Part shown: piece after piece, positions 2,230 to 31,031 of the stretch
How the letters are laid out: the number at the start of each line of letters is the position of its first letter
Numbering within the stretch: the stretch's first letter is position 1
IMG/VR virus record: IMGVR_UViG_3300031760_003956
Coordinates: 30,226-94,225 of that record
Source of the DNA: a virus
Lineage: Duplodnaviria > Caudoviricetes
Direction: 5' to 3' (one strand)
Length of the DNA: 64,000 bases
Notes under the pieces: model-generated
Database searches by the model: none
Told to the model about the DNA's origin: nothing
What the model saw: the letters and a program-made list of their open reading frames with translations, nothing else
Translations under genes and position numbers: made by a program

Positions 2230-5200
2230 ATGGCAGATGAAGATTTCAGACTACAACTATCAGCGGAAATAGGTAGTGACTCTATAAGTAGGGTTAAATC
2301 TCAACTTGACGAAATACAAAAGTCAGCTAAACCGATAACCTTAACAGGTGATATAGGGGCGTTGACTAAAGAAATTGGAGAGTTGAGGTCACAGCTTAAA
2401 TCTGTTAGTGCTGTTAAAATAGACGCTAATATTAAAACGGCTACAAACTCTTATAAAGAATTAGTTAATGTTGCTAAACAAATTGGTAATAAACAAATCA
2501 AGATTGCTAAACTTGATACACGGACAAATACTAATGAAATTAAAGCGTTACAGGCTGAGATAGATACTTTAACGGCTAAGGGTAAGGCTTTAATGGGTTC
2601 TTTCAATGGTAAGTTGTCGGCTGAACAGTTTAAGCAATTAGAGAATACAATAAAGGAAATTCAAACTACGACTCAGCAGACTATAGATGTTATCAATGCT
2701 AAGATGAAAGATAAGTCTGCGGTTGAGTTTCAAAAACAGGCTTTTGAAGATTTAAAAGCTAAAATAAAAGAAGAAGAACGGGCTGTCAGCGAATATAATA
2801 AAGTTCTTGAACAAATGAAGCGTTTGCAGTCTACTACTGAAAATGCTGGATATAGGGATTCAGTAGGTACTGCGACTATTGAGGGATACAAAACAAAACT
2901 TGAAGAACTTAAAGCTAAAGAGGTAGAGGTTCGTGAGAAATTTGCTGATTTAATCCCACAGGAAAGTATAACTAAGGCTGAAACTGGTTTTGCCAATATA
3001 ACTGCAAATATCGACAATATTGTTAGTAAAGCAGAACAGGCAAAAGAAAAACTCGTAGAGGCTATTCAGGGTACTCTTGCTAATGGTAATGCTTCAAATT
3101 ATGATGTGGCAATATCAAAAGTTAGTCTTGATATGAGCAAACTTTCTGCGGTTAGTGATGAAACACGGGAGAAAGTTCAGTTACTTAGAGATACTTTAGT
3201 TGAAATGCGTACTGCGTCTGAAAGTGGTGATGTTGAAACTCTTATTGCTAAAGAAAAAGAATTTTCAGATACTTTAAAGCAAGTACAAAATGAGTTAAAA
3301 ATCACGGCAGACAGAGAAGAAGAATTAGCACAAGCGGAGAAATTACTTAATGATAGAGCGATTCTATCTAATCAAATGGGCGTGTGGTTGAAAGAAAATA
3401 CTGCCGCTACAAAACAATTTGGTAATCAAATTAAAATACTTCAAACCGAGGTTAAGTCTTGTGATAATGTAAGGCTCGGTCAAATAAGACAAGAGTTTAG
3501 AATGATTACACAAGAAGCTAAAATGGCTGGTAAAACAGGTTTGGCTTTTACTGATAGACTCGGTTATCAAATAAAGAAGTTGTCAACGTATTTTAGTGGT
3601 CTTTATATTATTATGAGTACCTATAGAACTCTTAAAACAGGTGTTGAAACTGTTATTGAGTTGGATACGGCACTCGTTGATTTGAAGAAGACTACTGACG
3701 GTACTACTGAGCAACTTAATGAATTTTACGAGAGTGCGTCTGAGATTGGTAAGCAGTTGGGAGTTACGGCGAAAGATGTAATTCAAGCAAGTGCTGACTG
3801 GTCACGTCTTGGTTGGCTTCGGCTCGACCCTATATATAGAAATATATATAAGTAAATTCAGCTTTTATCGGGAAATCTCCTGAGAAGGACAATTCCGAGG
3901 GCAAGATAGAATGTTTAGTATATTCTAAACCCGTAACGAGTAAGTTTTACATACAGTAATGTATGTTTGCACGCTGAACACCTAAATACGAAAGTACAAG
4001 GTGATGATGTACTCTGCTCTGCAACTATAATCAAAATATAATATGAAATTGCAGAGGTAGGCAGAAATGACCTACCCCTTTCTTTTTGGAAAGAGTAACA
4101 AAAGGACTCAATTAAAGACGCTATTGAAATGGCTAAAACGTCATCTATTTTTGAAGCTATCTCACCGGATTTGGATATGAATGAATCGACCGATGGGTTG
4201 GTTTCGGCTATGAAGGCAAAACGAAAGTTTATGCCCTGTTGTATAGTAATATGCAACTTGTATACATTTAACTACAGGTAATCTCTAAAGCCTTGCACCA
4301 CAATAACGGAGAAATCACGTTATGATGGCACGAAAGTAGAAACAACGTAAGGATGATATAAGGTCAAAAGCCTAAGTATTGTGATAATGAGTGTTCTGTA
4401 GCCAAGTACCCTAACGTATTCCGTAGACCATACGGTATTAGTCGAGGGTAAAGGTTCAACGACTATTCTCAGTAGAGTTATGGACTTGTGAATAAGGGTG
4501 GAAATCCCGAATATCCATAACAATAGAAGTACGGCACAATCGCAAAGGTGTGAGTGAAAACCTCTTAAATGGAAAAGGTGTACCCCTATTAAATAGGGTG
4601 AAGAAATAGTCTATTCTTATATGAAAATATAAGTACAAAAGATTTAAAATTGAAGCAGATGACGCTTTAGATGGAATTGCGAGTAAGATTAATGCTATAG
4701 GTAATTCACAAGCAGTCAGTAACGGAAATATCGTTGACTTCCTTACTCGTTCATCTTCTGCTATGGCAGAAGCTAACAATACTTTAGATGAAACTATTGC
4801 GTTAGGAACGGCAGCAACAGAAATTACGAGGGACGCAGCTTCCGTAGGTAATGCTATGAAGACAAAACATTGTCTTTATATACAGAAATGTATATATAGA
4901 ACACATTTAATTGCAGGTAATACCTAAAGCCTTGCACCACAATAGCGAGGAAACTACGCTATGATGGTTTGAAAACGTAAGGATATTACAATGGTTGTTC
5001 TGCAACGAAGCACCTAAGTTAGTAATAATATGGTGAACGCTCAACGACCACTCCCTTGTCGGGTTGTAGGTTTACGAATAAGGGTAAAATCCCGAATAAC
5101 TACAGCAACAGAGGTACGGCACAAGCTAATGGTGTGGGTGAAATCCCCTTAAATGGAAAAGGTGTGGTTGCTATTCTGTTTAATACAGAATGTGATTAAG

Positions 5201-8200
5201 AAATGGTCTACTCTTGCGTGAAAGCGTAAGTTATCAATTGTGATAAGGTGTATGTTGCGAGTACACTTAATATTTGGAATAAGTATGAGAATTAGAGGCT
5301 ATGATGAAAGCACCAATGAATTTATTGGTGGCGTAGAAGTTCTCGATGGTAAAATAGCAAATCTTACGAAGACTGCTAAAAACGGATTTGGTGGCGTTTC
5401 TTTATTTGCTGACGAAGCAAAAACAACATTTAAAAGTACAACACAAATTTTAAGAGATATATCTGAGGTTTGGGATGACCTTACCGACAAAAATCAGGCA
5501 AAATTACTCGAAGCTCTTGCCGGTTATCATACGTTAGCCGGATTGTGTAGTAATACACAAAATAGTACATATTTAATTGCGTTGGTTGCCTAAAGCCTTA
5601 TACTACAATAATCGAGAAATCAGATTATGAGAGTTTAACAACATAAGGATATTACAATGGCTAATTCGCAGCGAAGTACCCTAACATTATTCTTAAAACA
5701 AAAGAACAGTTAAGCTGAGGGTACACGTTCAACGACCATTCCCGATAGGGTTGTAATAATAGAATAAAGGTGGGAATCCTGAATAGTTACAACAACAGAA
5801 GTACGGCTCAAATATATGGAGTGAGTGAAAACCTCTTAAATGGAAAAGGTATGCCCCTATTTTAAATAGGGTGAAGAAATGGTCTAAACTTATACGAGAG
5901 TATAAGAATGGTTATATATAAAAAATATGAGATATACTTATACGAATGATGATATTGATTTTTTAAGAAAATATTATCCAAACGGGGATTGGGAGAAAAT
6001 TGAACAAAGATTCCCGTTTTTATCAAAAACAGCAATATATAGAAAATGTCAAAAATTAAATATTGCTTCAAATAATACGCATAGAAAAGATTTTGACAAT
6101 ACTAAAAATAGACGTAAGTGGACGGAAAAGGAAACTAAAATATTAATGCAAAATTATAGTTATATTCCTTTTGACGATTTAATGAAATTATTACCAAATC
6201 GCACTAAAGATATGATTAATAATAAAGCAAAAAGATGTAATTTATTATCTTATCAAAAAATTACATCAAAATGGAAAGACTGGGAAGTTGAATATATACA
6301 AACTAATTGGTTTTTAATTCCCGATGTGATTATTGCGAAAAACATAGGAAGAACACAAAGGGCGGTCAAATGGAAACGAGAGCAAATGGGATTGTATAGA
6401 CAAAATTTTGAAAGTTTTTCTTATCCAACGATTTCAAAATATTTACGAGGTCAAAATCAACAATGGAAAAAAGAGTCTATGGAGAATTGTAATTATAAGT
6501 GTGTATTAACCGACAGTAAAAGTTTTGAGATACATCATTTATATGGTGTGAGCAATATTATAAATGATATTTTTGATTTATACCCTAAATACAAAGATAA
6601 ATCTTTTAAAGACTACTCTGAAAAAGATTTATCTTTTTTATTAACTGAATTTTTAAGAATACAGAGTTTATATCCGCTTGGTGTATGTGTGGATAAAAAA
6701 TTACACGTTTTGTTTCACAGTATGTACGGTCAATACTTTAATACACCTGAACAATGGTATAGATTTTGTGAAGATTATAAGAAAGGAGTGTATGAAGAAT
6801 ATATATAACCATTAACAGAAGTTGTGACTCTGTTTAATAAAATTGAAACGTCAAGGTCAAGTTGTTGCAGCTATGCTCAACAACTTCCAAACAGTAGAAG
6901 ATTCTCTTAATACAATGCAGAATAGTGCTGGTAACGCTATGCAAGAAATGTCAATTATTCAAGACAGTATTGAGTATAAAATGAACGCATTTTCTCAAAC
7001 TGCAACAGGAATATGGCAAAACCTTTTCAAGCGTGGCGATATTGGTGCTGTTATTGATTTATTTACAAATTTCTTATCAATAATAGATAAGATTACAGAC
7101 CACTTTGGTCTACTCGGCACAGCCGTAGGTATAACCGCTGGTATATTATCAGCAAAATTTGGCGTGGGTGAACTAATTAAACAGTTCTGTTTACTTATGA
7201 CACTAAGGAACGAATACGCTCACGAAACCTTTAACTAATAGTAATATAAACGAGATTGTGTTTGCTCGTATAACGGTTTATCGTTACACAATCAAGAGGG
7301 GTTTAGAAAAATAGGATAAACTGATATAAGTTAAAATTCTTATATCAATAGACTAAGACGTTTTATATGTTAAGCTACATAATACATATAAAACTATTAG
7401 CAGCCATTACCTTACGAGAGGTAGGTTCAGAGGACATAAACCTACACGGTGAGAATCGTGAATGAATGTTGCAAACTGTACCCGACAGTAGTTATGAGTT
7501 GGGGTAAAAATTTAACCATTGGCTAAATGGTGTGTCAAAAATAGTGGGATACTTCTTCCCTGTTACCTGAGCAAAAGAAGTTAAAATAGAAATTTTATGT
7601 ATCATAATGCACAAATAACACTTGAAAAACGTGCGAAAAGTGTAGTGAAGTAGGTTGAAAAAAGTGCGAAAAGTGTGTTTTGACGTATTTTGTTCACTTT
7701 GTATTTGTGCAATATGACGAATAAATAGCAACCAAAAAAGGTTGCATATAGAAAACGCAACCAAAAACGGTTGCGTTTGTTATTATACTGAAAGGGTATA
7801 ATTTGATTTTTACGATTCGGATTATACCTTAACGGGATATTTCCCATTTCGGCAATTTTTTCGGATTTGGGGAATAGATTGCCGATTTAAAAAGAAAGGA
7901 TTGGTAAAATGATATTTTCGGTTGATAGGTTTATTGAATTATCAAAATCAAAAATAAAAAAGAAATTTAAAAAAGTATATCTTTATGATGAATATAATAA
8001 TGCAACTGGTAGAAACAAAGAAAGGCGTTATTATTATAATAAAGAAATTATGTTATTTTTAAAAGAATGGGAGATTGAATTAACATATAAAACATTGATT
8101 CATAAGGGTGTTTTTACGGAGAAAGAATTGTCTTTTGAACAATTTATAAAACTATTTTATATAAAAATATTTGAGAATCGGTATTTATGTAGATTTATAG

Positions 8201-11200
8201 ATATAAAACCGATGATAGATTTTATTAATAGAGTTCGGCAAAATAATGATTAATCATTCTCCATAGGTTATTGCAGAGGTATAATTTTTGCCTTAATTGT
8301 TGTTTCTTTGTTTCATTAAATTCATTCTTGACTTCATTAGAAAGAATATTATTACGCTCTTTCAAACAAAGGACAACAAAAGGTGCGTAGAATATTGCGT
8401 CTGATATATTTATAAATGTATTATTATTCATTTTATTTATTATATCTTGGCGATAAGAAAATTCTTGCATAATAAATATACCGTCTATTTCTACGGATTC
8501 TTTGATTAGCTTAAATTCTTCTTCTGTTAATTTTCTATCTACAAAATCACTCATATTCTTCCCTACCTTAAAACTTATAACCACAATTCCGGCAAACAAA
8601 TTGACTTCTTGCGGTTTAATTAGTAACTAATCTACTTTATATTCATATAAACTTGCTTTCCAAGTACCATTTTCACGGCGTTGACAACTAACACTTTTTA
8701 TTTGAGGTTTACCGTTAATAGTCATATTGAAATCAAGATAAACGGTATCTTCATCTATTATATTGTAATCTCCTGTATAGACCACACTACTTACTTCTCG
8801 ATATATGCTCATAACTCTACTACAGTATGACATAGCTGCTCTTTCTGCTTTTTTGAGATAGTATGTACTCATTTGAGGTTTTGTATATTCTTGTTCGTAG
8901 TCGGTGTCGGAATAAGAATTTGTATTAGTCGGGTTATCGGTTGTATTGCTTTTCTTACAAGTAGTAAGAGATATAACTATTCCAATTACTACGATTATTA
9001 TTATTACTATTATTGAAACAAAAAATACGATTGAATTTTTCTCGGATTTATCTTTATTTTGTAGCATAATATAGCCTCCTTTGGTATTTAAACCAATTAT
9101 ATATTATCTTTATACACAATTCAAGTAATTTTGATAAATTCAGGTTACGTCTTTATATTCAGTTTGATATTCAAAACCGTTGAAGACGAATCGAAATTTG
9201 CTGGAATTAGAATAAAGAATAACTTATTAAGTGGTATAAAAGCAATAGCGAGTGAAGCCCCGAAGATTGATTTGGGTAAGAATTTTTCTGCTAATTTAGA
9301 TAAGCAAACAGAGTATTTTACTTCATTTAGAAATGCAGTAAATGAAGGTATGGCGGTTGATGAGGCTAAAACACAGTATTTATCAAGTGCTATGCAAGCA
9401 ACTCGTGATTATGTAAATGCGACAAACTTAGCAGAACAAAGCGAAGAAGGACTAAGAACCGCCGTTACTCAAAGTCAAGTGGCTTTAGTGGCACAAGGTA
9501 ATAGTCTTAGTAATACAAGGTCGTTGATTGCCGAGTATAACTCTGGTTTAAACACTACAGGTAATGTATGTAAAGAAACGGGATTAAATCAAACACAATT
9601 TGCACAAGCGGTAGCACAATCACGAACTGGTTTAGGTAATTATTTAAACAATTTAGACGGTGCGAAGGCTTCTATGGGTGGTTATATCGCTCAACTTGTA
9701 GGTGCTAAAATTGCTACGTTTGCTTTAAACGCTGTAACAACATTACTTAATGCTACTATTAGTATGGGTATTGGGCTTATTGCGTCAATGCTTGTAAGTG
9801 GAGTAGTTAGTTGGATTGATGATATAATTCATCATACTGAGAAACTTATTGAAGCCGGTGAAGAAGCTGAAAATAAAGTTAAGGAAATTAGCGAAACTTT
9901 TGAAAAACAAAAGTCTGTTATAAGTGAATCAACAACGCAATTTGCTGAATTGGCTCAGGGTGTTGATATGGTTACTGGTAAAAACAAATCATTGTCAACG
10001 TCTGAATATGAGGCGTTTTTATCAATTAGTAAAGACTTGGCAGAACAATTTACCGACCTTCCTGTTATTTACGATGAAAATGGCAATGCTATTGTTCAAC
10101 TTAACGGTAATGTCAATGATGTTACAAATTCTTTAAAGGAACTATTAGAGGTTGAAAGAGAAATAGCCAATCAAAAAATTGCAGATGAATTACCAAAGAT
10201 TTTTGATAAAACTAAGGCACAAAATGAAGTTTTAGAAGACGAATTATACGATATACAATCTAATTTATGGTATAACAAGTTAGATAAAGCTGGTGAAAAG
10301 CGACTTTCGATAGATGTAAATGGTTTAGATTTAGATGAAGTAACGAAGATACGAGAAAAATACGAGGCTTTATTTAAAAAATATAATATCCCAGCTTTAT
10401 TTAATAAAGGACAACAGGTTTGGAAAGATGATAAACTTGTATTTGATACTTTGTATTTTGATTTAAACGGAACTGTAAATGTTACTGATAAATTGAAAAA
10501 AGAATTAGAAAAAGGTACTTACGAAATTCAAAAAGAATTTGAAAGTAAATTAAGTGGAAATACTTTTCAAACACTTGTTAATAATGTTAATAAAAAATCT
10601 GCTGATAAACAAAACGAAATAAAGCAGAATTGGAGCAATTTAACTTCTAATATAAATAAATGGCTACCTACCCAAACCGACTATTCTGCTCTTTCGGAAG
10701 AAAGACAAAACCTTATCCAACGGTCTATTAACTCGTTGGATTATACTGCATTAAATTTTGATAAATGGGAAGACGCTGAAAAATATATTAAAGACCATTT
10801 ATTAAAGGTATTAGGTAAAGATGAAAACGGTAAATTTAATTTTGATATTGAAAAATATACAGATTTATCGGAAGCCTTTGACTCATTTAAAAAAAATAAA
10901 ATATCTCTAAAAAAATATCAAGAGTATTATAATACTGTTAAGACAAATCTTGAAGGTATTAAGGGCATTACAAAGGAAACCAAAAATGCTATATTAAATG
11001 ATTTTAATACTATTGGTTCATCGGGAGAAACTTTAGATAATGCTTATGAAAGAATTTTTAAACTTTCTAAAGGCGTAATATCGGTAAAAGACGCTGAAAA
11101 AGAGTTAAAAAATTGGAAGTACGATGATATTTCAGCTTTATTTAAAATTGACGCTAAAACTATAAAATCTTGGGATGATTTAAAAAACAAGATTAAAGAG

Positions 11201-14200
11201 TTTAAAGAAACCGATACAAGCAATTTTGATGAAAATGCTTTTATTGATGATGTTAAAAGGAGAGCAGACGCTTATTCTGATTTTCTTAAACAGTCAGCAC
11301 AACAAGGCGGTATTAATTATAAAACTGAAACTGATGAAAAGGGTAATGTAAAATCTCTTGGTGTAGACGCTCTTGCTTCTTATTATAGTCAAATTAAAGG
11401 TTATGATGAGGACAAACTTATTAAACGTACTGCACAAGGTATTAAACTTAATACACAAGAACTTACAAGATTAAATAATGAGGTTGCTAAACAAGAAAAG
11501 AGCAAAGTTGATGAAAGGATTGAAAAGTTACAAAAGAAACTTGGAAATCTAAATGAAAAGATTAATTCTTGTACGGACGCAGAAGAAAGATTAAACCTTG
11601 AAAATGAACGTAGTGGTATTCTTGATGATATTGAAAACACCGAACTACTTGCAGCCAATTATGAAGCACTAACTTCTAAGTATCAGGCTTGGCAAGACGC
11701 TTTGAGTAATGGAGAAGAAGGAGATTCTTATGACGCTATAAGAGATAAACTCAAAGATATTAAAGAACTATACGACAAGGGTTTGGTTGGTACAAATGAG
11801 TTTAGAACTTATGTTGATTTACTGACGTTTAAGGATTTATCAACGGCTAATGTTGATGATATTGTTAAGGCTTATGAGAATCTTGACAATAATATTAAGA
11901 ATACAAGTTATAGCGTAAAAGACTTCCTCAAAGAAGATGAACAGGGTGTAAATAACTTCTTGTCTGCTATGAAAGAATTAGGTTACTATACACAAGGTAA
12001 AGATGGTGAATGGACTCTTAAAATTGCAGATAAAGAAAGTCTTGCAAAACAGCTTGGTATTAGTACGGAATTTCTTGAAAACATTGTACAGAAGTTAGAT
12101 GACTACGATTTCACCGTAGATATTGATATTGGTGGAATGTCAGATAATGACTTACAAAATGCTTTTGATGATGTTCGTAAGAAATTAAAGAAAGCAAAAC
12201 TCACCGATATGACATTTTCGTTCGATGAGAATACTACTGAATCACAGGTTGACGACCAACTTAAAGAGATTCGTAGGATTATTCATAAGAAGTGGACTAC
12301 CGTAAATGGTGAAGGTCAAGAGGTTATTAAGTTTGACATTGATGATGAAAATGCTAAAGCTGCTCAAATTATTCTTGCTAATCTTTTAAAGAAAAAGCAA
12401 GAATTTCAAGATAGCGGAGCGTTGGCGTTAAAGGTTGATGTTGACAAAGACTTAAAAGACCCGAAATCTGACGCTGGTAAGGCTATTAATAACATTCAAT
12501 CCTTTAATAAAGGTATGAATAAGTATCAAGTTGATATTCAAACAGGTACGGATACGAAAAAATCGACTAAGAAAATTACTAAGGCTGTTGATGGTCTTAA
12601 TAGTATTAAAGACAAAAAAGTTCGTGCTGAACTTGGACTTGATGATAAGAAATTTAAGAAGGCTGTTAAGAATATTAAGGCTAAAGTTAAAGCTGGTGCT
12701 GATTTAGACCAAAAAGATATTGACATTGTTAAATCCAAAATCAAAGGTATTGACGCTAAAGCACTCGTACATCTTGGAGTTGATAACAAGGACGTAGCTG
12801 AGGAAAAGAAACGTCAAGAAGGCGAAGTTATCAATAAAAAAGTTCAATTTAGCGTTGAAAAAAGTGAAGTTCTTAAATTTGAGAAAGAAGACCACGATGT
12901 AAAGGCTATTCTTAAATATGCTCCACAGATTGATGAAGACGCATTTACCCGATTAGTTAATCAGGCTAAAACGAGATTACAAAATCAGTTAAAAAATGTT
13001 AATCCTACGCCAAAGTCAAAGAAAAAGAAGAAAGCTAAAGTCAATGGTACTGCATTTGCAAGGGGTAATTGGGGTGCTAAAGACTCCGGTAGGGCTTTAG
13101 GTGGAGAACTTAAACCTGAAATTCACGTTTTTGCTAATAGTGGACGTTGGGAACTTATTGGCGAACGCTCTCCTGAGTTCTTTAATTATCGTAAAGGCGA
13201 TATTATTTTCAACGGAGAACAGACCGAACAGTTACTTAAATATGGTAAGATTAATTACGGTAGTAAACGTGGTAATTCATTCTTAGGTGGTACTGCGTTT
13301 GCTGGTTCTTCTGCTCGTGGTGGTATTAATCTTAATAGTCAAGGATTAATACCTAAATCTAAATCTACGAAGAAATCTTCATCGAGTTCTAAATCATCTT
13401 CTTCATCTTCTAAAAGTAAGAGTAGTTCTGATAGTAAGAGTGATAAGGACACACCACTTGATAAGTTTAAAGATTGGTTTAGTAAACTGTTTGATTGGAT
13501 TGAGGTTAAACTTGAACGACAAACTGATAAAATTAGTGACTATATTACTAAGGCTGAACGTGCAACAGAGCGTGGTAGTTATGACGCTTCTGTTAAGAAT
13601 TATCGTAAAGCTATAAACACAACAAGTGGGCTTGTTGAAACCGAGGGTAAAGCAAGTAGGCGGTATAAGAAACAAGCTAATAAAACATTGGACGTTGCTG
13701 TTAGCAAAGGCGTTATTAGCAAAAAGAGAGCAAATTCGATAAAGAAACTTGTTAAGTCGGGTAAAATTGATATTAGTAAGTATAGCGAAAGTGTTAGAGA
13801 AGTTATAGGTGATTATCAACAATGGTATGACAAAGCCAAAGAAGCTAAAAAATCTATCGGTGAACTTCATAATAATATTCGCACTTATATCAAAGACCTC
13901 AAAGATGTTCGTGACGCTCAACGTCAAGCAAAACTCGATAAACAGAGTACATTCACGGGTATTGGTACAAGTGGTTTTGCTTATACTTCTGCGTTTAAGA
14001 ATAGTCAACTTAATTATCAAAACTCACAGCTTAATGCTCAAAATTCTGCTTATAAAACTGAAACTGATAAAGTTGTAAGTGATTCTAAGAAAATTGGTAG
14101 TAGTGCTACTTCTGCTCTTGGTAAGTTAAAGCCGAAGAAGAATCAGAAGAAATATAAGCAAGCTATTAAAAATGCTAAAAATGCAATTAAAGCTAAAAAG

Positions 14201-16759
14201 AAAGTTAAAGACGCTGACTTAAAAACTATTAAAAAGCATAGTGTCAAGACATATGAGAAATTATATGCTTATAATCTTTCTTTGGATAATGTTGAAACGG
14301 CTAAACTTGAACAAGCGGCTAATTATGCTGAAACGAGTAATCAAAAATTTGCTAATCAAGAAGCTAAATATGAGAACGACAGGCAAAAGAGCGAAGACAA
14401 TATTAGTCTATTCCGTCAAAGAGCCGATAATGCTACTTCTGCAAGTGGTAAGAATACTCAGTTAGATAAAGTTGTTGCTCAGTACAATAAACAACAAACA
14501 GATAGACAAGCTGAGATTAATGATTTTGCGAATCAAGCAACGGCTTTTGGTAAAACTATTTCTAAACAATCTACTAAGGGTAGCGGTGATTATAGTCAAT
14601 ATATTACTCAGGCAAAGAATAACGTAACTGCTGGTACTACAATTAGTGCTTCTGTTCTCGCTAAACTTGCTGAGGGTTATAGTAAAGGTAAGATTACCGC
14701 TGGATTCTATCAGGCTTGTGTTGATTATAATAACGCACTTCAATACAAGAAACAAGCGGAAGACCAACAAGAGATTGAAAACGAAACAATTATAGCCGAA
14801 AAACGTGCTATTGGTGAAGAGAAGATAAGCAATATTCAGAAAGATTATCAAAATAAACTTTATAATAATAGAGTAAATGGTTTGACCTCTGAACAGTTAG
14901 GTGCTATGCGTGATATTAAGACCGCAAAAGGATTATCGCTTGACGCTAATGACTATCAACAGCAGATTCAGCTAAGTCAACAACAGAGAAATATTTTGAT
15001 AGCAGAACAACAAGATTTAATAAATCAAATGAATCAAAATATTGCTGATGGTTTGTGGACTTATGATTCTCAGGAATACATAGACGCTTCAAAAGCACTT
15101 GATGAAATCGGTGTTTCGATTGCCGGTTGTACAAAGAATGAAATTGAATGGAATAATGCGATTATAAACTTACCATTTGAGAAATATGAGAAAGCACTTC
15201 AAATCATCGACAAAGTTAAAGGTGCTTGGAGTGCATACGCAAGTATGATGAAGACGATTGGTAAGGATTTAGATAAGAGTGTTGAAACTGCTTATCTCCA
15301 ACAGATAGCACAAGAAACCGAACATTATCAAACCACAGTAAAGCAAACTGCGGAGGCTTGGGCTAATTATCAAAAGGCGTTAGCTGATTCTGAGGGTGTT
15401 TATGGTGGTAAGACTGCTGAGGAATGGTTTGGTGAGTATAACGATTTTGCGGCGGCTCAATATTCTTCTTATGAGAATATTAAGAAAATTAAAGATGAAC
15501 TTCGTGATGAGTTCTATCTTAAACCTTTTGAAAAAGCTATTGAAAAAGCCGAGAAACTTAATGGTTTGTTGGAGGGTATCGCTGAATTTATTGACGAGAG
15601 TATGTACTATGATAAAGACGGTAAGATAACCGAATATGGTATTGCACAGGTTGGTCTTTTGACTGCTGGTTACGAAAAAGCAAGAGAGCAAGTTGGCAAT
15701 TATCAAGCAGAACTTGATGAAGTCAACAGACTGTATGCAGAGGGTTATTATACTGCCGATGAGTATGCTGATAAGGTTAATGAAGTACAAACTAATATGC
15801 TTAACTCAGCTAAAGATATGAAGTCTTCTATGAATAGCATAGTTAATATGTATAAAGATATGGCTAAAGCTGAGTTAGATAGTTTGTTTAAGTTAATCGA
15901 AACTCGCCGTGAGGCTATTTCAGCGAAAAAATCTTACTATGACTTAGACAAAACGCTCCGTGATAAAAACTCAGAAATTCAAAATCTTGAAGCACAGATA
16001 GCAGCACTTGAAACTATGGACGATTTAGAGTCTAAGGCTCAACGTGCAAGATTACAGGCTGACTTAAAAGAGAAACAGGATGACCTTAACGAAACTGTAA
16101 ACGACCACTTAATTGAGATTAGTCAGAACGCTCTTGATGACTTGAAAGACAGTTTACAAGACGCTTTTGATGATAAGTGGGAGCATATATTTACTGATTT
16201 AAGTCAAGTAACACAGCTTATGAGTGCTGCTAACGCACTTACTAAGGGTTCGACTTTAACTATTAATAATGCTCTTAATAAGTTACTTGGTTATTATGGT
16301 ATTGACCCGAACAAAGCACAATTAAGTGATGTTGTATCTACGGCTTCTGCCGGATACGCAAGTGGTACAAGGTCTGTATCTCAAAGTGGGTTAGCTTGGA
16401 CTCAGGAAGGACGTAAACCTGAGTTTATTGTTAGAAAATCTGATGGTGCTATTCTAACTCCTTTAAGCAGAGGTGACGGTGTAATTCCTAACGACCTAAC
16501 TGATAACCTGTTTGCTTGGGGTAAGATTACACCCGAAGAATTTATCGGTAAGACGGGTGCTGATTATAACACACCTGAAACCAATGTCAACAATAATGTT
16601 TACAATAATTACGATAGTTTGATTAGAGTAGACGGTAATGTTGACAGTACAGTAATTACAGATTTAAAGGCGTTTGGCAAACAATTTTACGAGGACTCTT
16701 ATCAATACACACACAGACGTATTGTAAGTGATTTGAAGAAAATTGGTGTTAAACGATAA
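2230..16759 (+). CDS. Tail tape-measure protein, ~3360 aa after splicing; join(2230..3814,4106..4217,4642..4863,5278..5524,6846..7169,9167..16759)
   Basis: Exons sum to 10083 nt (3361 codons). Junctions restore tape-measure-type sequence: ADWSRLG-Y-SIKDA, VSAMK-A-FKIEA, GNAMK-T-ISMRIRG, LEALAG-KRQGQ, KFGVG-IFKT. Long coiled-coil; followed by Dit-like and tail genes. Confidence 0.88.
3815..4105 (+). ncRNA. Group I intron 1 in tape-measure gene (291 nt, no ORF)
   Basis: Exon ends in U3814 paired with G3826 in P1 (UUCG-capped); P3 TTCAGC/GCTGAA; P7 GAGTA(3938-42)/TACTC(4010-14); terminal G4105; splicing gives T|AC = Tyr in frame. Confidence 0.88.
4218..4641 (+). ncRNA. Group I intron 2 in tape-measure gene (424 nt, no ORF; C-G at 5' splice site)
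   Basis: R motif GGTTCAACGACTA; P7 GACTA(4461-65)/TAGTC(4607-11); P1 GGC|A with TGCC and a GAAA tetraloop; terminal G4641; GC|A = Ala in frame. Confidence 0.88.
4864..5277 (+). ncRNA. Group I intron 3 in tape-measure gene (414 nt, no ORF; C-G at 5' splice site)
   Basis: P7 GACCA(5046-50)/TGGTC(5204-08); P1 AAGAC|AA with TTGTCTT; terminal G5277; AC|A = Thr in frame; strongly similar to intron 2. Confidence 0.88.
5525..6845 (+). mobile_element. Group I intron 4 in tape-measure gene (1321 nt) encoding an HNH homing endonuclease
   Basis: P1 CCGGT|/GCCGG with U5524-G5537; P10 ACGTT(5531-35) pairs exon AACGT; P7 GACCA(5734-38)/TGGTC(5880-84); ORF looped out by a perfect 12-bp stem 5908-5919/6801-6812; terminal G6845. 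Confidence 0.9.
5927..6808 (+). CDS. Intron-encoded HNH homing endonuclease with N-terminal Myb/SANT-like repeats
   Basis: Repeats YTNDDIDFLRKYY / WTEKETKILMQNY / WKDWEVEYIQTNW; C-terminal CVLT...EIHHLY...GVCV..KLHVLFHSMYG. Confidence 0.82.
   Translation: MRYTYTNDDIDFLRKYYPNGDWEKIEQRFPFLSKTAIYRKCQKLNIASNNTHRKDFDNTKNRRKWTEKETKILMQNYSYIPFDDLMKLLPNRTKDMINNKAKRCNLLSYQKITSKWKDWEVEYIQTNWFLIPDVIIAKNIGRTQRAVKWKREQMGLYRQNFESFSYPTISKYLRGQNQQWKKESMENCNYKCVLTDSKSFEIHHLYGVSNIINDIFDLYPKYKDKSFKDYSEKDLSFLLTEFLRIQSLYPLGVCVDKKLHVLFHSMYGQYFNTPEQWYRFCEDYKKGVYEEYI
7608..7886. repeat. Cluster of direct repeats and hairpins inside intron-5 cargo
   Basis: TTGAAAAA(C/A)GTGCGAAAAGTGT at 7622-43 and 7655-76; GCAACC-N6-GGTTGC at 7728-45 and 7757-74; long stems TGCACAAATA/TATTTGTGCA, GGTATAAT/ATTATACC, TCGGCAAT/ATTGCCGA. 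Confidence 0.8.
7909..8253 (+). CDS. Hypothetical basic protein (intron-5 cargo)
   Basis: 114-aa ORF with RBS GAAAGGA; Lys/Arg/Tyr-rich; no motif recognised. Confidence 0.6.
   Translation: MIFSVDRFIELSKSKIKKKFKKVYLYDEYNNATGRNKERRYYYNKEIMLFLKEWEIELTYKTLIHKGVFTEKELSFEQFIKLFYIKIFENRYLCRFIDIKPMIDFINRVRQNND
8225..8554 (-). CDS. Hypothetical protein (intron-5 cargo, antisense to tape measure)
   Basis: ORF 8225..8599 on the track; more likely start ATG at 8554 (MSDFVDRK) after AAGGTAGGG. Confidence 0.55.
   Translation of the reverse strand: MSDFVDRKLTEEEFKLIKESVEIDGIFIMQEFSYRQDIINKMNNNTFINISDAIFYAPFVVLCLKERNNILSNEVKNEFNETKKQQLRQKLYLCNNLWRMINHYFAELY
8627..9067 (-). CDS. Single-pass membrane protein, moron/superinfection-exclusion-like (intron-5 cargo)
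   Basis: N-terminal hydrophobic helix IVFFVSIIVIIIIVVIGIVISL, then Thr/Asn-rich linker and small extracellular domain; RBS AGGAGG. Confidence 0.7.
   Translation of the reverse strand: MLQNKDKSEKNSIVFFVSIIVIIIIVVIGIVISLTTCKKSNTTDNPTNTNSYSDTDYEQEYTKPQMSTYYLKKAERAAMSYCSRVMSIYREVSSVVYTGDYNIIDEDTVYLDFNMTINGKPQIKSVSCQRRENGTWKASLYEYKVD
9096..9124 (-). promoter_or_regulatory. Sigma-A-type promoter driving the antisense cargo genes
   Basis: TTGAAT (9124-9119), 17-nt spacer, TATAAT (9101-9096), upstream of RBS AGGAGG and ATG 9067. Confidence 0.75.
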
Positions 16760-29400: not shown

Positions 29401-31031
29401 TCAGAAAACCGACTAAACCTTATGCTTGGGATGAAACTTATGAGTTTGATTCTTGGGATAATAACCTATCTTCAAGAATTAGAGAAGCGGTTGATTATAC
29501 TGCACAGTATACAACGACTGCAAGACAATATGAGGTTCAATTTAAATTTACTGTTGCAGGACAAGCGGTACAGACCACTACTGTTACTGCCGGTGATACA
29601 GTTACTTATGATAGTTCAAACGGTCAGCCGAGTAAAGCAAGTGACGGAAATAACTGGTATCTCTGTCGTGGTTGGACTGATACAGGACAGGAATATATTA
29701 TTTCTACTACTGATGAGAGTAGAATTTATGGCTTGTTTGCGACTATTACATTAAATGAGGCGTTGTTAGCTGATTTTGCAGCTACAGTACCCACAGTATT
29801 AAAACCAACATTGGTATTCAATACTATTTACAATGAGTGTAGTCTGCCTACAAGCGGTATTCCTCGTAATCCGACTAAGACCGATATTAAGAATTACCTT
29901 GATAACTACAGATATGTTTATACTAACGACCCCGAATTGCAAGAACAGAGTGCTTATACTTTGGGTGAGTTATATGCTATTTCTATGTCAGAAAAATATA
30001 GCCTGTATCTCCCTCTTGGTTCAAGAGCAAGAATCATTTGTGATACCGATACTTATATTGGCGGTGATACGGCTGGTGATGGTAAGGGTAAATTTGAAAT
30101 AGAAGTTATGGGATATAACGTATATGAACGTGCTGACTCAGGATTTGCTGGTGTTGGTGATTGTGGCGGTGCTACAAACGCTATGATAAGTGGCGATTAT
30201 CAAGGACAGAAAATCAAGGGTATGATTAGTAGTCCTACGGCTATGAGTGAACTTAGTGGTAAATCTGCTGGTCTGTATATCTGCAATACACAAGGTTATC
30301 AATGTGATACTGACGGATTTGTATGTGATACTTCTACTGGTAATCTTTATGATAGTGATGGTTGTGTTTATTATTATAATGGCGAAACCTCGCCTACTAA
30401 AGTAGGAGCATACTTCTCTCACGTTGTTTGGTCTTGGGTATTCTCAGATTCTACTGGTGCTGGCGGTCAGTATATGGACGCTACATATTGTATGAACAAT
30501 ACTGCTCCTAACCCACATACAATTAACGGTTGGGGTAATGACGAAGCAGAAGATTATAAGAAATGTGTAATGAATAATTGGCTTAACGGTACTGTATTCG
30601 GTTACTTACCTTCTGAATTACAAGGTGTTATTACGCCTGTTAAGGTAGTTTCGGGTAGAGGTAGAGCAAGTGCAAGTGATAATACATTTAAGATAACTCC
30701 TGTTAGTAGTGTATCGAGATTGTTCTTACTGTCTGCTGGTGAAGTATTTGGTAGAAATGATACTCCGTATGTTAATGAAATTAGTAAATGGTCTTCTCTT
30801 GCTGTTCGTAATGCAAATGATGAGATTAGTTCTATTTCGAGATATTGGAGATTAACTTCAAATAATGTAAGGCTAAAACACCCATACTACGGTACGGGAA
30901 GTAGCAACTGGTACTGGTTGCGTTCGCCGTATTCCACTTCCTACTTCGTCAATGTGAACGGCACTGGCAACTTCAACAACGGATATGCTAACGGTACTAG
31001 TGGCGTTTCGCCGGCTTTCTGTACGGGGTAA
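23484..31031 (+). CDS. Large tail fibre/receptor-binding protein and DGR target (BppU-like N-terminus, Ig-like, CotH-like, LRR, C-terminal CLec-type variable domain)
   Basis: LTQWDLGR...VDVPNEIL N-terminus; QGTSS, GKYNFNNDKG, DNREKN, PYDGDTALG; LRR-like LKVLNVSNCKNL; ends WYWLRSPY...GVSPAF, which is the VR. Confidence 0.85.
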   Translation: MIDLIFYDGNEQEIPSLTQWDLGRVLYIRNTENLVQTPVFHFYNRSVDESTPVLSEFVTINSHSYIKVDVPNEILQKSLAIHVHMGVANNANELETIGTGVITVIQKAKPSYYEYVQNIADIFDETISRKLEEELEGGSPKGVFATKSDLTNENSGLYVCMTANDDTSATPPIKSGYLYYWDSETNTLSYLGIQYQSTGIPDGSITEDMLSTALKKLVIEDLRKFESTADLTTYMESEDAEAGQLVRVKETVNGEDIYQVYILQNGTNNTLIKKKINSNEEALRALENTVSALSEDLDNLENDNDTTHTDIINRFNNNAAGGLVYNSSTKALQLVSIGDDTENSSQAIGSPVIIDTGITGVQLAVEPDKNDNTKNYLFLRDSGGTDLAYVELPATGTGNAGYVVMRLKNLLSSTTFTVPYNEVNGCECLLVYNFTSIDTGDNNSPTGNGTAYYYVNNTLVLTTQNLVQGNHTVDIGSYLTPNSTNNIRVMVVDSEGNRKTLSYTITVAYNYLTSDFDALSVQNGAFSIPYTPNGSGDKIIYCVIDGDTAHKLSYQTNKSAQTFYFDISGLSHGGHFIEIYMSTLLEGQSERVTSNVLTFGVVMISSNTPVLYAKPSNTTIQQYSYNNLDFIAHSSNQQNTVSAVVDEWVETQIPVSTIEIDGDDVDCITVADATTYEITVDENAETITSSGVSYYKLSDTNVIINGTKKYITTREYATSLTATTDEVTSFPYRFVDSGIFGVTLTFGELSQTVVYTVESIDVAEAETNGLKYLFDPSNRSNKEDISTRGTHSYTNGDNETYNTIFSGIDFEIYGWTGTSLKIPHGGSMTIPYKPFLTDTNTTKGKTIEFSFKIKNVYDYAQNIISCIANNMGINILANKGNFTMGSSSAVEVQYVEDEEIRLSFVIAKRNSANDYRSQLVYVFVNSILSGVFQYGQADSFVQNPAAGITIGSNYAEIELYKVRCYDIELFNVQQGNTSRSYKILNNFIADSPDVNDMIERNARNDVFDESNSIDNSLLPDDCPYMVIESDALPSARTDEFVISGYFVDKADSSKAFVFSNAKIKTQGTSSLDYFIKNFKITFKNGVLFEIGANIVPVEVNGENVDCVLSDDITTYGITLSNNAEVIEVVDEGTTKTYYRISDTNIVVDGGINYIRVGKYQLFSDSIPTNKFCLKADVASSEGANNTVLMKIWDDITRALYRDGYDTLTPPQIEDERVRQSIDSRPMVLYWRDISNPNNPVLKFWGKYNFNNDKGTHEVYGFNETKYPECQCWEFRDNGKALSQFKSTDFDTLVPFTDKKTQDTFDAPRWYDTFEPRFPEIDDELPNPYTQVSVAKLNKLKRVISWVCSTDTTQADDSVTLANSVEYDGVTYTTDSVEYRLAKFKNEFTDYFKKDLTLLYYIFTDVFLIADNREKNQMITTFDGIHWFFIPYDGDTALGINNSGKYGFEYWLEGDSVYNGANVYNGRPSVLWNNVATVFAHDIQLLCTALLSARITNRDSDIVSHFGFEYVRDRFNKYQSAWSEAIFCADAEHKYIVPYIELNDARYLSMAQGSKRLQREYWLRNRFKYWCSKYKIGDATDVKNGINIRMTTPEGMSDERYVEVYNPCGNPSTSYYYEKTGNTYFASTDTSVDSEKTYYVKWNTLIVTSLTNTYVLVGFGQNLIPYRCNANESIAAKGNLDSNGDSPLNFYNASEIKNVGDLSQSYVSNFTIGSNVKNLESIVIGNEDNSYENTAITQLSTSSCEKLKVLNVSNCKNLGTGNVKYIDISKCFNIREVLAKGTKITAVNLASGSQIRTLKLPNTIMNLELINQTQLSTFEMEGYSNLLTLKVQNTPIDVLDIVQNATGLTNINLIDINWTFEDTELLDTLVKKNKLDTCTVQLTGRVYVPELTSKQLSDYTAAWGNGLLVDYSRLIVQYPVTFKNYDGTVLKNDDNESAILYVNEGETPYDAIVIDSNGDYYTKDELGNADELLFRKPTKPYAWDETYEFDSWDNNLSSRIREAVDYTAQYTTTARQYEVQFKFTVAGQAVQTTTVTAGDTVTYDSSNGQPSKASDGNNWYLCRGWTDTGQEYIISTTDESRIYGLFATITLNEALLADFAATVPTVLKPTLVFNTIYNECSLPTSGIPRNPTKTDIKNYLDNYRYVYTNDPELQEQSAYTLGELYAISMSEKYSLYLPLGSRARIICDTDTYIGGDTAGDGKGKFEIEVMGYNVYERADSGFAGVGDCGGATNAMISGDYQGQKIKGMISSPTAMSELSGKSAGLYICNTQGYQCDTDGFVCDTSTGNLYDSDGCVYYYNGETSPTKVGAYFSHVVWSWVFSDSTGAGGQYMDATYCMNNTAPNPHTINGWGNDEAEDYKKCVMNNWLNGTVFGYLPSELQGVITPVKVVSGRGRASASDNTFKITPVSSVSRLFLLSAGEVFGRNDTPYVNEISKWSSLAVRNANDEISSISRYWRLTSNNVRLKHPYYGTGSSNWYWLRSPYSTSYFVNVNGTGNFNNGYANGTSGVSPAFCTG
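30917..31020 (+). repeat. DGR variable repeat (VR)
   Basis: 104-nt ungapped match to 32058-32161 with 13 mismatches, 11 of them at TR adenines. Confidence 0.95.

Follow-up and report, generated by a model that had tools for sequence, protein, structure and literature searches.

Few features of group I introns are as strongly conserved as the U.G wobble at the 5' splice site. The last exon base has been described as 'virtually always a U (or exceptionally a C)' (Tourasse, Stabell and Kolsto 2014, PMC4227781), and the group B IStron BcISt1 was shown experimentally to splice after a G (PMC4227781). A natural C at this position, paired with G (C(-1):G), was found computationally in 72 proteobacterial tRNA-Leu introns, referred to as Leu.3Cg (Williams 2020, bioRxiv 10.1101/2020.01.27.920355). 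Beyond such individual statements, literature searches yielded no survey of the identity of the last exon base. In tape-measure genes, the subgroup IA2 introns TMP-IVS1 and TMP-IVS2 are known from prophages of the Bacillus cereus group (Tourasse and Kolsto 2008, PMC2504315). Here, we analysed a stretch of 64,000 nucleotides (nt), hereafter called the window, comprising positions 30,226 to 94,225 of the uncultivated virus record IMGVR_UViG_3300031760_003956 (Caudoviricetes), in which a tail tape-measure gene on the plus strand (2230 to ~9100) is split by several group I introns. The record is 94 kb in length and its DNA is present in bovine-gut runs from 11 studies. The exon strands of paired region 1 (P1) of introns 2 and 3 contain no U, and the U.G wobble characteristic of group I introns is thus missing from both. 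As proposed in an earlier note on this DNA, a C-G pair (C4217-G4233 and C4863-G4872) is found instead at the predicted 5' splice sites, in clear P1 hairpins, and the joins are fixed by homologues and by an intron-less allele. On comparative grounds, we consider it probable (roughly 0.7) that introns 2 and 3 belong, as working members, to a large subgroup-IA-type family in which the cleavage-site pair has only to combine a pyrimidine in the exon with a purine in the guide, be it C-G, U-A or U.G. The members of this family colonise several conserved sites of the tape-measure gene in phages of gut and rumen Firmicutes.

The family was recovered with one exact 18-base core motif, which matched at least 117 viral contigs; of the 84 stretches that it matched in genomes of bacteria and archaea, many were chance hits. 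In 109 of the viral loci carrying the motif, tape-measure references were also matched by tblastn. The genuine genome matches came from Clostridia, Lachnospiraceae, Ruminococcus and Erysipelotrichaceae assemblies, and the cultured bacteria Anaerovorax sp. IOR16 (C:G) and Coprococcus ammoniilyticus H1_22 (U:A) carry members of the family. The analysed set leaves out the 113 of 213 motif matches that had no recognisable P4 or P2 (many of them chance matches in bacterial genomes), and 64 of 129 viral copies gave no junction due to truncated loci or distant references. The resolved set consisted of 98 intron copies with 66 distinct P1 helices. Among these P1 variants, which are related to each other, the survey of the last exon base envisaged in the earlier note gave C:G in 39, U.G in 14 and U:A in 11 cases; the two remaining variants, which have a 1-nt linker between P1 and P2, were scored one base off. 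Neither a purine as last exon base nor a C.A pair occurred among the 66 P1 variants. Eight of the 18 exon contexts showed two or three pair states, and four showed all three, as exemplified by CUGGU/ACCAG, CUGGU/GCCAG and CUGGC/GCCAG. The cleavage-site pair therefore evolves like an ordinary helix pair, and the four other exon:guide pairs co-vary in the same manner across the 66 variants.

The codon context of the C:G variants bears out the earlier suggestion that such a pair would widen the range of insertion sites: in 30 of the 39, the last exon base is the second base of an Ala (GC|N) or Thr (AC|N) codon, a position at which the protein forbids a U. The other nine follow a third codon base, mostly that of Gly GGC, where a U was possible. 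At third-codon positions in general, where U is free, the pair was of the Watson-Crick type in 20 of 32 variants. The idea that introns 2 and 3 represent a special subfamily had to be abandoned, as the same core, including the 5' strand of the joining region J4/5, was found in siblings with U.G (intron 4 of the window) or U:A. We did not find the J4/5 5' strand to co-vary with the pair type, GCAGG-UAA occurring with all three types, and introns 2 and 3 are thus not structurally distinct. The sole exception is a small GCGUUGGUUG variant of J4/5 (intron 4 of the window and loci L101 and L012), all members of which use U.G. The altered docking of P1 that had been proposed for introns 2 and 3 is an inference that may apply to them.

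Both insertion sites were covered by a gapless alignment with uninterrupted tape-measure homologues from an uncultured gut phage (L001) and from Brevibacillus phage Sundance (L003). At the first site, LVSAMKA|FKIEADD of the window aligned with TLQGFGLL and TIKGFGVE, and at the second site, VGNAMKT|ISMRIRG aligned with GTALKTVSMRLRG. The mRNA predicted at the two joins reads AAG GC-A UUU and AAG AC-A AUA AGU. The corresponding empty sites in related contigs with an uninterrupted gene read AAG GCA TTC and AAG ACA ATT TCC, the first-site residue of the uninterrupted alleles being Ala in 29 and Gly in 16 cases. In addition, a contig of the bovine-gut run X13 lacks exactly intron 3 and reads GCT ATG AAA ACC ATA AGT ATG. 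Given a terminal G, the boundaries predicted from these sequences are C4217|A4218...G4641|A4642 and C4863|A4864...G5277|A5278. They delimit intron 2 (4218-4641) and intron 3 (4864-5277), for which the earlier note had given a slightly too short span.

A 5' splice site ending in U would be available if the cut occurred after an upstream U, e.g. U4857 or U4211, in combination with another 3' site and a shorter protein. The U.G rule would then be kept, and in the case of intron 3, the join GCU AU|A AUA AGU would even restore the frame with G5277 as terminal G. However, such a cut would remove two residues of the motif G-x-A-[LMF]-K-[TS]-[ILV]-S-M, which is gapless in all homologues, the sequence AMKTISM is kept in the intron-less allele, and U4857 would pair with A4878 and not with a G. 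Based on the gapless motif alignment, we rejected this option, which we regard as extremely improbable. The register shifted by -1 was rejected as well. For intron 3 (A4862|...G5276|), this register keeps the terminal G but changes Thr to Arg (Lys-Arg-Ile), in contradiction to the intron-less allele and the homologues. In the case of intron 2 (G4216|...A4640|), the resulting Lys-Gly-Phe is in line with some homologues, but a terminal A would be needed, and uninterrupted alleles with MKAF are common.

In order to define which phosphate is cut, a register test was applied to 30 junctions, in which the P1/P2 rule supplied the 5' site and the protein alignment the intron length, the two sources being independent. 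The rule is based on the geometry of the family: every resolved copy has an 8-base-pair (bp) P2 with a GNRA loop directly after P1, and in 66 of 66 P1 helices, the guide purine that faces the last base of the exon is located 13 nt upstream of this loop. The last intron base was G in 29 of 30 junctions, compared to 6 of 30 at a shift of -1 and 1 of 30 at a shift of +1; the sole miss (L046) resulted from a one-base slip in the guide position chosen. A terminal G is also expected because P7 is canonical in all members. Of the possible readings, only a C-G pair combined with a terminal G agrees with the homologues, the intact guanosine-binding P7, the P1/P2 geometry of the family and the G in 29 of 30 junctions, in agreement with the earlier proposal.

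The register shifted by +1 is the alternative that this test has to be weighed against. In this register, the exons would end in A4218 and A4864, paired with U4232 and U4871, respectively, and the introns in A4642 and A5278. The claim that such a one-base shift requires a terminal A was confirmed, and the mRNA would remain identical, A4218 being equal to A4642 and A4864 to A5278; furthermore, A is as conserved at shift +1 (29 of 30 junctions) as G is at shift 0. The identity of the mRNA is usual in the family, since P1 and P10 use adjacent guide bases and, as a rule, both the intron and the 3' exon begin with A. In intron 3, a shift of +2 also gives the same mRNA with a terminal A. On the other hand, the +1 register would require two departures from the rule rather than one, and the guanosine pocket in P7 is canonical. 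It would also place the cleavage pair one bp off from that of intron 4 of the window and of locus L101, despite an identical P1/P2 geometry. In these two siblings, the register is unambiguous because the +1 shift creates a stop codon, and the predicted cut follows a U.G pair at exactly the position held by C:G in introns 2 and 3. Finally, an A/A reading is impossible in locus L024 (GAGGGC|UGAC...AUAAUG|GCAG), where the first exon base is a G that pairs with a guide C; this G:C pair is the only informative covariation in P10 and concerns the first P10 pair. These results make the +1 register improbable and favour cleavage after C4217 and C4863.

The first 3'-exon base was A in 29 of 30 junctions, even at synonymous third-codon positions (4642 and 5278 in the window and further members of the family). 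Since all four bases occur at this position in uninterrupted alleles, the intron, via P10 or the homing site, constrains the exon. At a Gln-Ala site (CAGGC|AAAAUG...) found in loci L020, L038, L084 and L109, the best protein match (QAN) puts the cut into the P1 loop and the P1-consistent register gives QAS; in this clade, either the residue has changed or splicing is unusual.

With regard to the RNA structure, RNAalifold predicted P2, P3, P4, P5, P5a, P5b, P6, P6a, P8 and P9 from an alignment of 10 compact members, 8 of which use C:G. The consensus contains 81 pairs, 46 of them with compensatory changes, and the copies in the window keep all of these helices. Selection acts on the ribozyme, and C:G-using and U.G-using members alike keep P7 (ACGACYA/URGUCU). 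Between the P7 5' strand and P3', there are ~95-110 nt with conserved hairpins (P7.1/P7.2), as is typical for subgroup IA; this insertion was seen in columns 283-397 of the RNAalifold alignment and in the Rfam alignment. P10 comprises 2-5 bp in the family. A blastn search of intron 3 against 50,697 cultured-phage records gave one uncultured gut phage as the only match.

In intron 3, AAGACAA (4859-4865) is fully paired with UUGUCUU (4870-4876), C4863-G4872 included, and exon bases A5278, A5279 and U5280 can form P10 with U4871, U4870 and A4869. The same site and P1 pairing recur in loci L002, L005, L022 and L068. P1 of intron 2 consists of G4215-C4235, G4216-C4234, C4217-G4233 and A4218-U4232, extends up to a GAAA loop and is interrupted at exon position -4, where A4214 and C4236 form a mismatch. 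As the near-identical relative L101 has a perfect P1 (AAGGC/GCCUU) with an A-U pair at this position, the guide of intron 2 in the window has undergone a recent U-to-C change. The 3' ends in the family read ..AAAAG|AUUU and ..AUUUG|AUUU. P5 of intron 3 (4922-4930 with 4990-4995) carries CCUAAAG...AAUGG, and P9 (5213-5230 in intron 3) is GAAA-capped in introns 2 and 3. The P5 sequence appears to resemble the 11-nt GAAA tetraloop receptor, and the capped P9 would fit L9-P5 docking.

These features are compatible with the following mechanism. The last five exon bases pair with the guide, P1 abuts the 8-bp GNRA-capped P2 without a linker, P7 keeps the normal guanosine pocket, the intron ends in G, and the first 3'-exon base forms P10 with the guide base beside the purine. 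Exogenous guanosine would then attack the C4217-A4218 and C4863-A4864 phosphates, the site being set by the fixed P1/P2 geometry as a helix ruler, by P10 and by the terminal G rather than by wobble-specific contacts. An intron of this kind could reside behind the second position of Ala and Thr codons, at which a U is impossible. We tentatively go one step further, with slightly less than even confidence, and suggest that this lineage may no longer need the wobble at all: the site would be found by the 5-bp exon:guide helix stacked on the GNRA-capped P2, and cleavage would be equally efficient after C or U in Watson-Crick pairs. Such a lineage would account for the colonisation of second-codon positions.

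Several points weigh against the view that introns 2 and 3 are working ribozymes cut after C. The variants were sampled with a single exact 18-base motif from at least 117 contigs and are related, and their proportions should not be read as estimates for a population. In the +1 register, with an A-U pair and a terminal A, most C:G members would give the same mRNA, and sequence alone cannot separate the two registers. The RF00028 matches of introns 2 (4233-4633, 36.3 bits, E 1.2e-6) and 3 (4854-5230, 47.8 bits, E 4.3e-10) span the full model, as do the other matches in the window, and all RF00028 scores in the window are below the curated gathering score of 50 bits. The ruler mechanism is something that we infer. 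Neither a spliced join nor intron ends were found in runs X19 and X20, which are RNA, and X13, which is probably DNA. Furthermore, binding, reactivity and fidelity of the Tetrahymena intron decrease when its G.U is exchanged for G-C (Pyle et al. 1994, as cited in PMC3923125), for which reason introns 2 and 3 may be slow or helper-dependent.

Alternatively, the boundaries could be right and the C-G introns self-splice poorly or not at all; they would require a protein or translation-coupled folding, or act as a throttle on tape-measure output, with the C-G pair simply being tolerated. A mutation of this type inactivates the Tetrahymena intron (Williams 2020, 10.1101/2020.01.27.920355), and no spliced RNA was seen in runs X19, X20 and X13. 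However, tails require the tape-measure protein, and C:G nevertheless predominates among the P1 variants (39/66); this state is also kept at 9 sites where a synonymous U was possible. In addition, compensatory changes are kept in the cores of C:G members, and their guides follow changes in the exon, as in AAGAC/GUCUU, CGCAC/GUGCG and AGGAC/GUCC. We therefore consider poor self-splicing unlikely and retain the reading of introns 2 and 3 as working members of the family.

Table 1 Predicted exons, introns and ribozyme elements of the tape-measure gene (positions in the window).
Feature	Position	Strand	Evidence and remarks
Tape-measure exon 1	2230..3814	+	ORF 2230-3855; 3' end ...LG + U3814
Intron 1, different type, 291 nt, group I-like	3815..4105	+	Canonical U3814.G3826 pair; terminal G4105
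Exon 2 (...STDGLVSAMK + GC)	4106..4217	+	Translation, homologue alignment
P1 exon strand, intron 2 (AAGGC)	4213..4217	+	Pairs with 4233-4237; C4217 predicted last exon base
Intron 2, 424-nt group I ribozyme without ORF	4218..4641	+	RF00028; junction-derived length; P2-P9 from RNAalifold alignment
Internal guide, intron 2 (GCCCU)	4233..4237	+	G4233 pairs with C4217; 13 nt upstream of P2 loop G4246
P2, intron 2 (8-bp stem, GUAA loop, abuts P1 without linker)	4238..4257	+	
P7 5' strand, intron 2 (ACGACUA), guanosine-binding helix	4459..4465	+	Aligned to RF00028 consensus; pairs with 4607-4612
P7 3' strand, intron 2 (UAGUCU)	4607..4612	+	
Predicted terminal G (omega-G), intron 2	4641	+	Register test; next is exon base A4642
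Exon 3 (A + FKIEADD...VGNAMK + AC)	4642..4863	+	Translation; PF10145 profile positions 66-140
P1 exon strand, intron 3 (AAGAC)	4859..4863	+	Perfect pairing with 4872-4876; C4863 predicted last exon base
Intron 3, 414-nt group I ribozyme without ORF	4864..5277	+	RF00028; junction-derived length; intron-less allele in run X13
Internal guide, intron 3 (GUCUU)	4872..4876	+	G4872 pairs with C4863; 13 nt upstream of P2 loop G4885
P2, intron 3 (8-bp stem, GAAA loop)	4877..4896	+	
P7 5' strand, intron 3 (ACGACCA)	5044..5050	+	
P7 3' strand, intron 3 (UGGUCU)	5204..5209	+	
Predicted terminal G (omega-G), intron 3	5277	+	Register test
Exon 4 (A + ISMRIRGYDE...LEALAG)	5278..5524	+	Translation; PF10145 profile positions 146-201
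Intron 4, sibling of introns 2 and 3	5525..6845	+	Canonical U5524.G5537 pair; terminal G6845; ORF 5927-6808

The coordinates of the exons, introns and ribozyme elements are compiled in Table 1. The assignment of the host gene is based on matches of its exon pieces to positions 66-140 and 146-201 of the PF10145 (PhageMin_Tail) profile. The gene appears to be prolonged, after the last intron, by an open reading frame (ORF) of 2542 amino acids (aa) at 9131-16759, and the mature tape-measure protein would in this case be well above 3000 residues in length. Intron 1 gave only a weak RF00028 match (3809-4034, 17 bits). Its P1 is GGUUGG/CUCGACC, and the join of exons 1 and 2 (U|AC UCA AUU) results in LGY-S, as in the homologues with RLGYS and KLGYN. 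The RF00028 match of intron 4 covers 5515-5906 (39.8 bits, E 1e-7). Its ORF codes for 293 aa with only a weak match to a Myb-like DNA-binding domain (PF00249, E 4e-4); no nuclease domain was detected in Pfam, and the product presumably acts as a homing endonuclease. In a related phage from run X13, intron 4 is devoid of the 889-bp segment carrying this ORF (5912-6802 in the window), and 8624-9079 is missing as well; intron cargo is thus gained or lost between close relatives. The metatranscriptome runs X19 and X20 contributed only three short contigs to the 5.9-kb stretch (4887-5126, 5616-5807 and 7289-7486). These contigs cover the cores of introns 3, 4 and 5 and none of them lies over an exon; they might represent stable excised intron RNA, relatives or DNA carry-over.

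A single ribozyme core that occurs with C-G, U-A or U.G on the same exon context provides a comparative system for the contribution of the wobble and its possible substitutes, and shows how introns reach codon positions that are closed to a ribozyme requiring a U. The value of the C-G introns for trans-splicing is speculative: should activity be confirmed, the limitation that the target must be a U would be lifted for trans-splicing designs, and the family would offer a scaffold for ribozymes aimed at both C and U. The two cultured hosts, Anaerovorax sp. IOR16 and Coprococcus ammoniilyticus H1_22, make experiments practical.

In comparison with the described systems, introns 2 and 3 resemble the group B IStron BcISt1 in being bacterial-type group I ribozymes with a last exon base other than U. 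In contrast to BcISt1, which splices one base before a U.G pair followed by an internal loop, they have no U.G pair in P1; group B IStrons moreover carry an IS element, whereas introns 2 and 3 contain neither a transposase nor any other ORF and are thus not IStrons. The TMP-IVS introns share the host gene, the occurrence of related introns at several sites, where P1 is adapted to the individual site while the P3-P7 core is conserved, and the coexistence of copies with and without ORF. This likeness is one of host gene and subgroup only, and the respective paper (PMC2504315) is silent on the cleavage-site pair. The engineered G-C pair in the Tetrahymena intron is the same substitution at the same reaction site. 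There, however, it was engineered into an IC1 intron and impairs binding, reactivity and fidelity, whereas C:G is the natural majority state of a subgroup-IA-type family in phages. According to computation, P1 of the Leu.3Cg introns likewise contains a natural C(-1):G pair of the Watson-Crick type, and these introns end in G, but they are confined to one fixed site in the anticodon loop of tRNA genes of Proteobacteria, whereas the phage introns are of the IA type and occupy many sites in protein-coding genes. Unlike in Leu.3Cg, C:G, U:A and U.G interchange within one phage family. Within the searchable literature, a large phage family with C:G as majority state, the additional use of U:A, and the exchange of all three states on one core with fixed P1/P2 geometry appear to be new.

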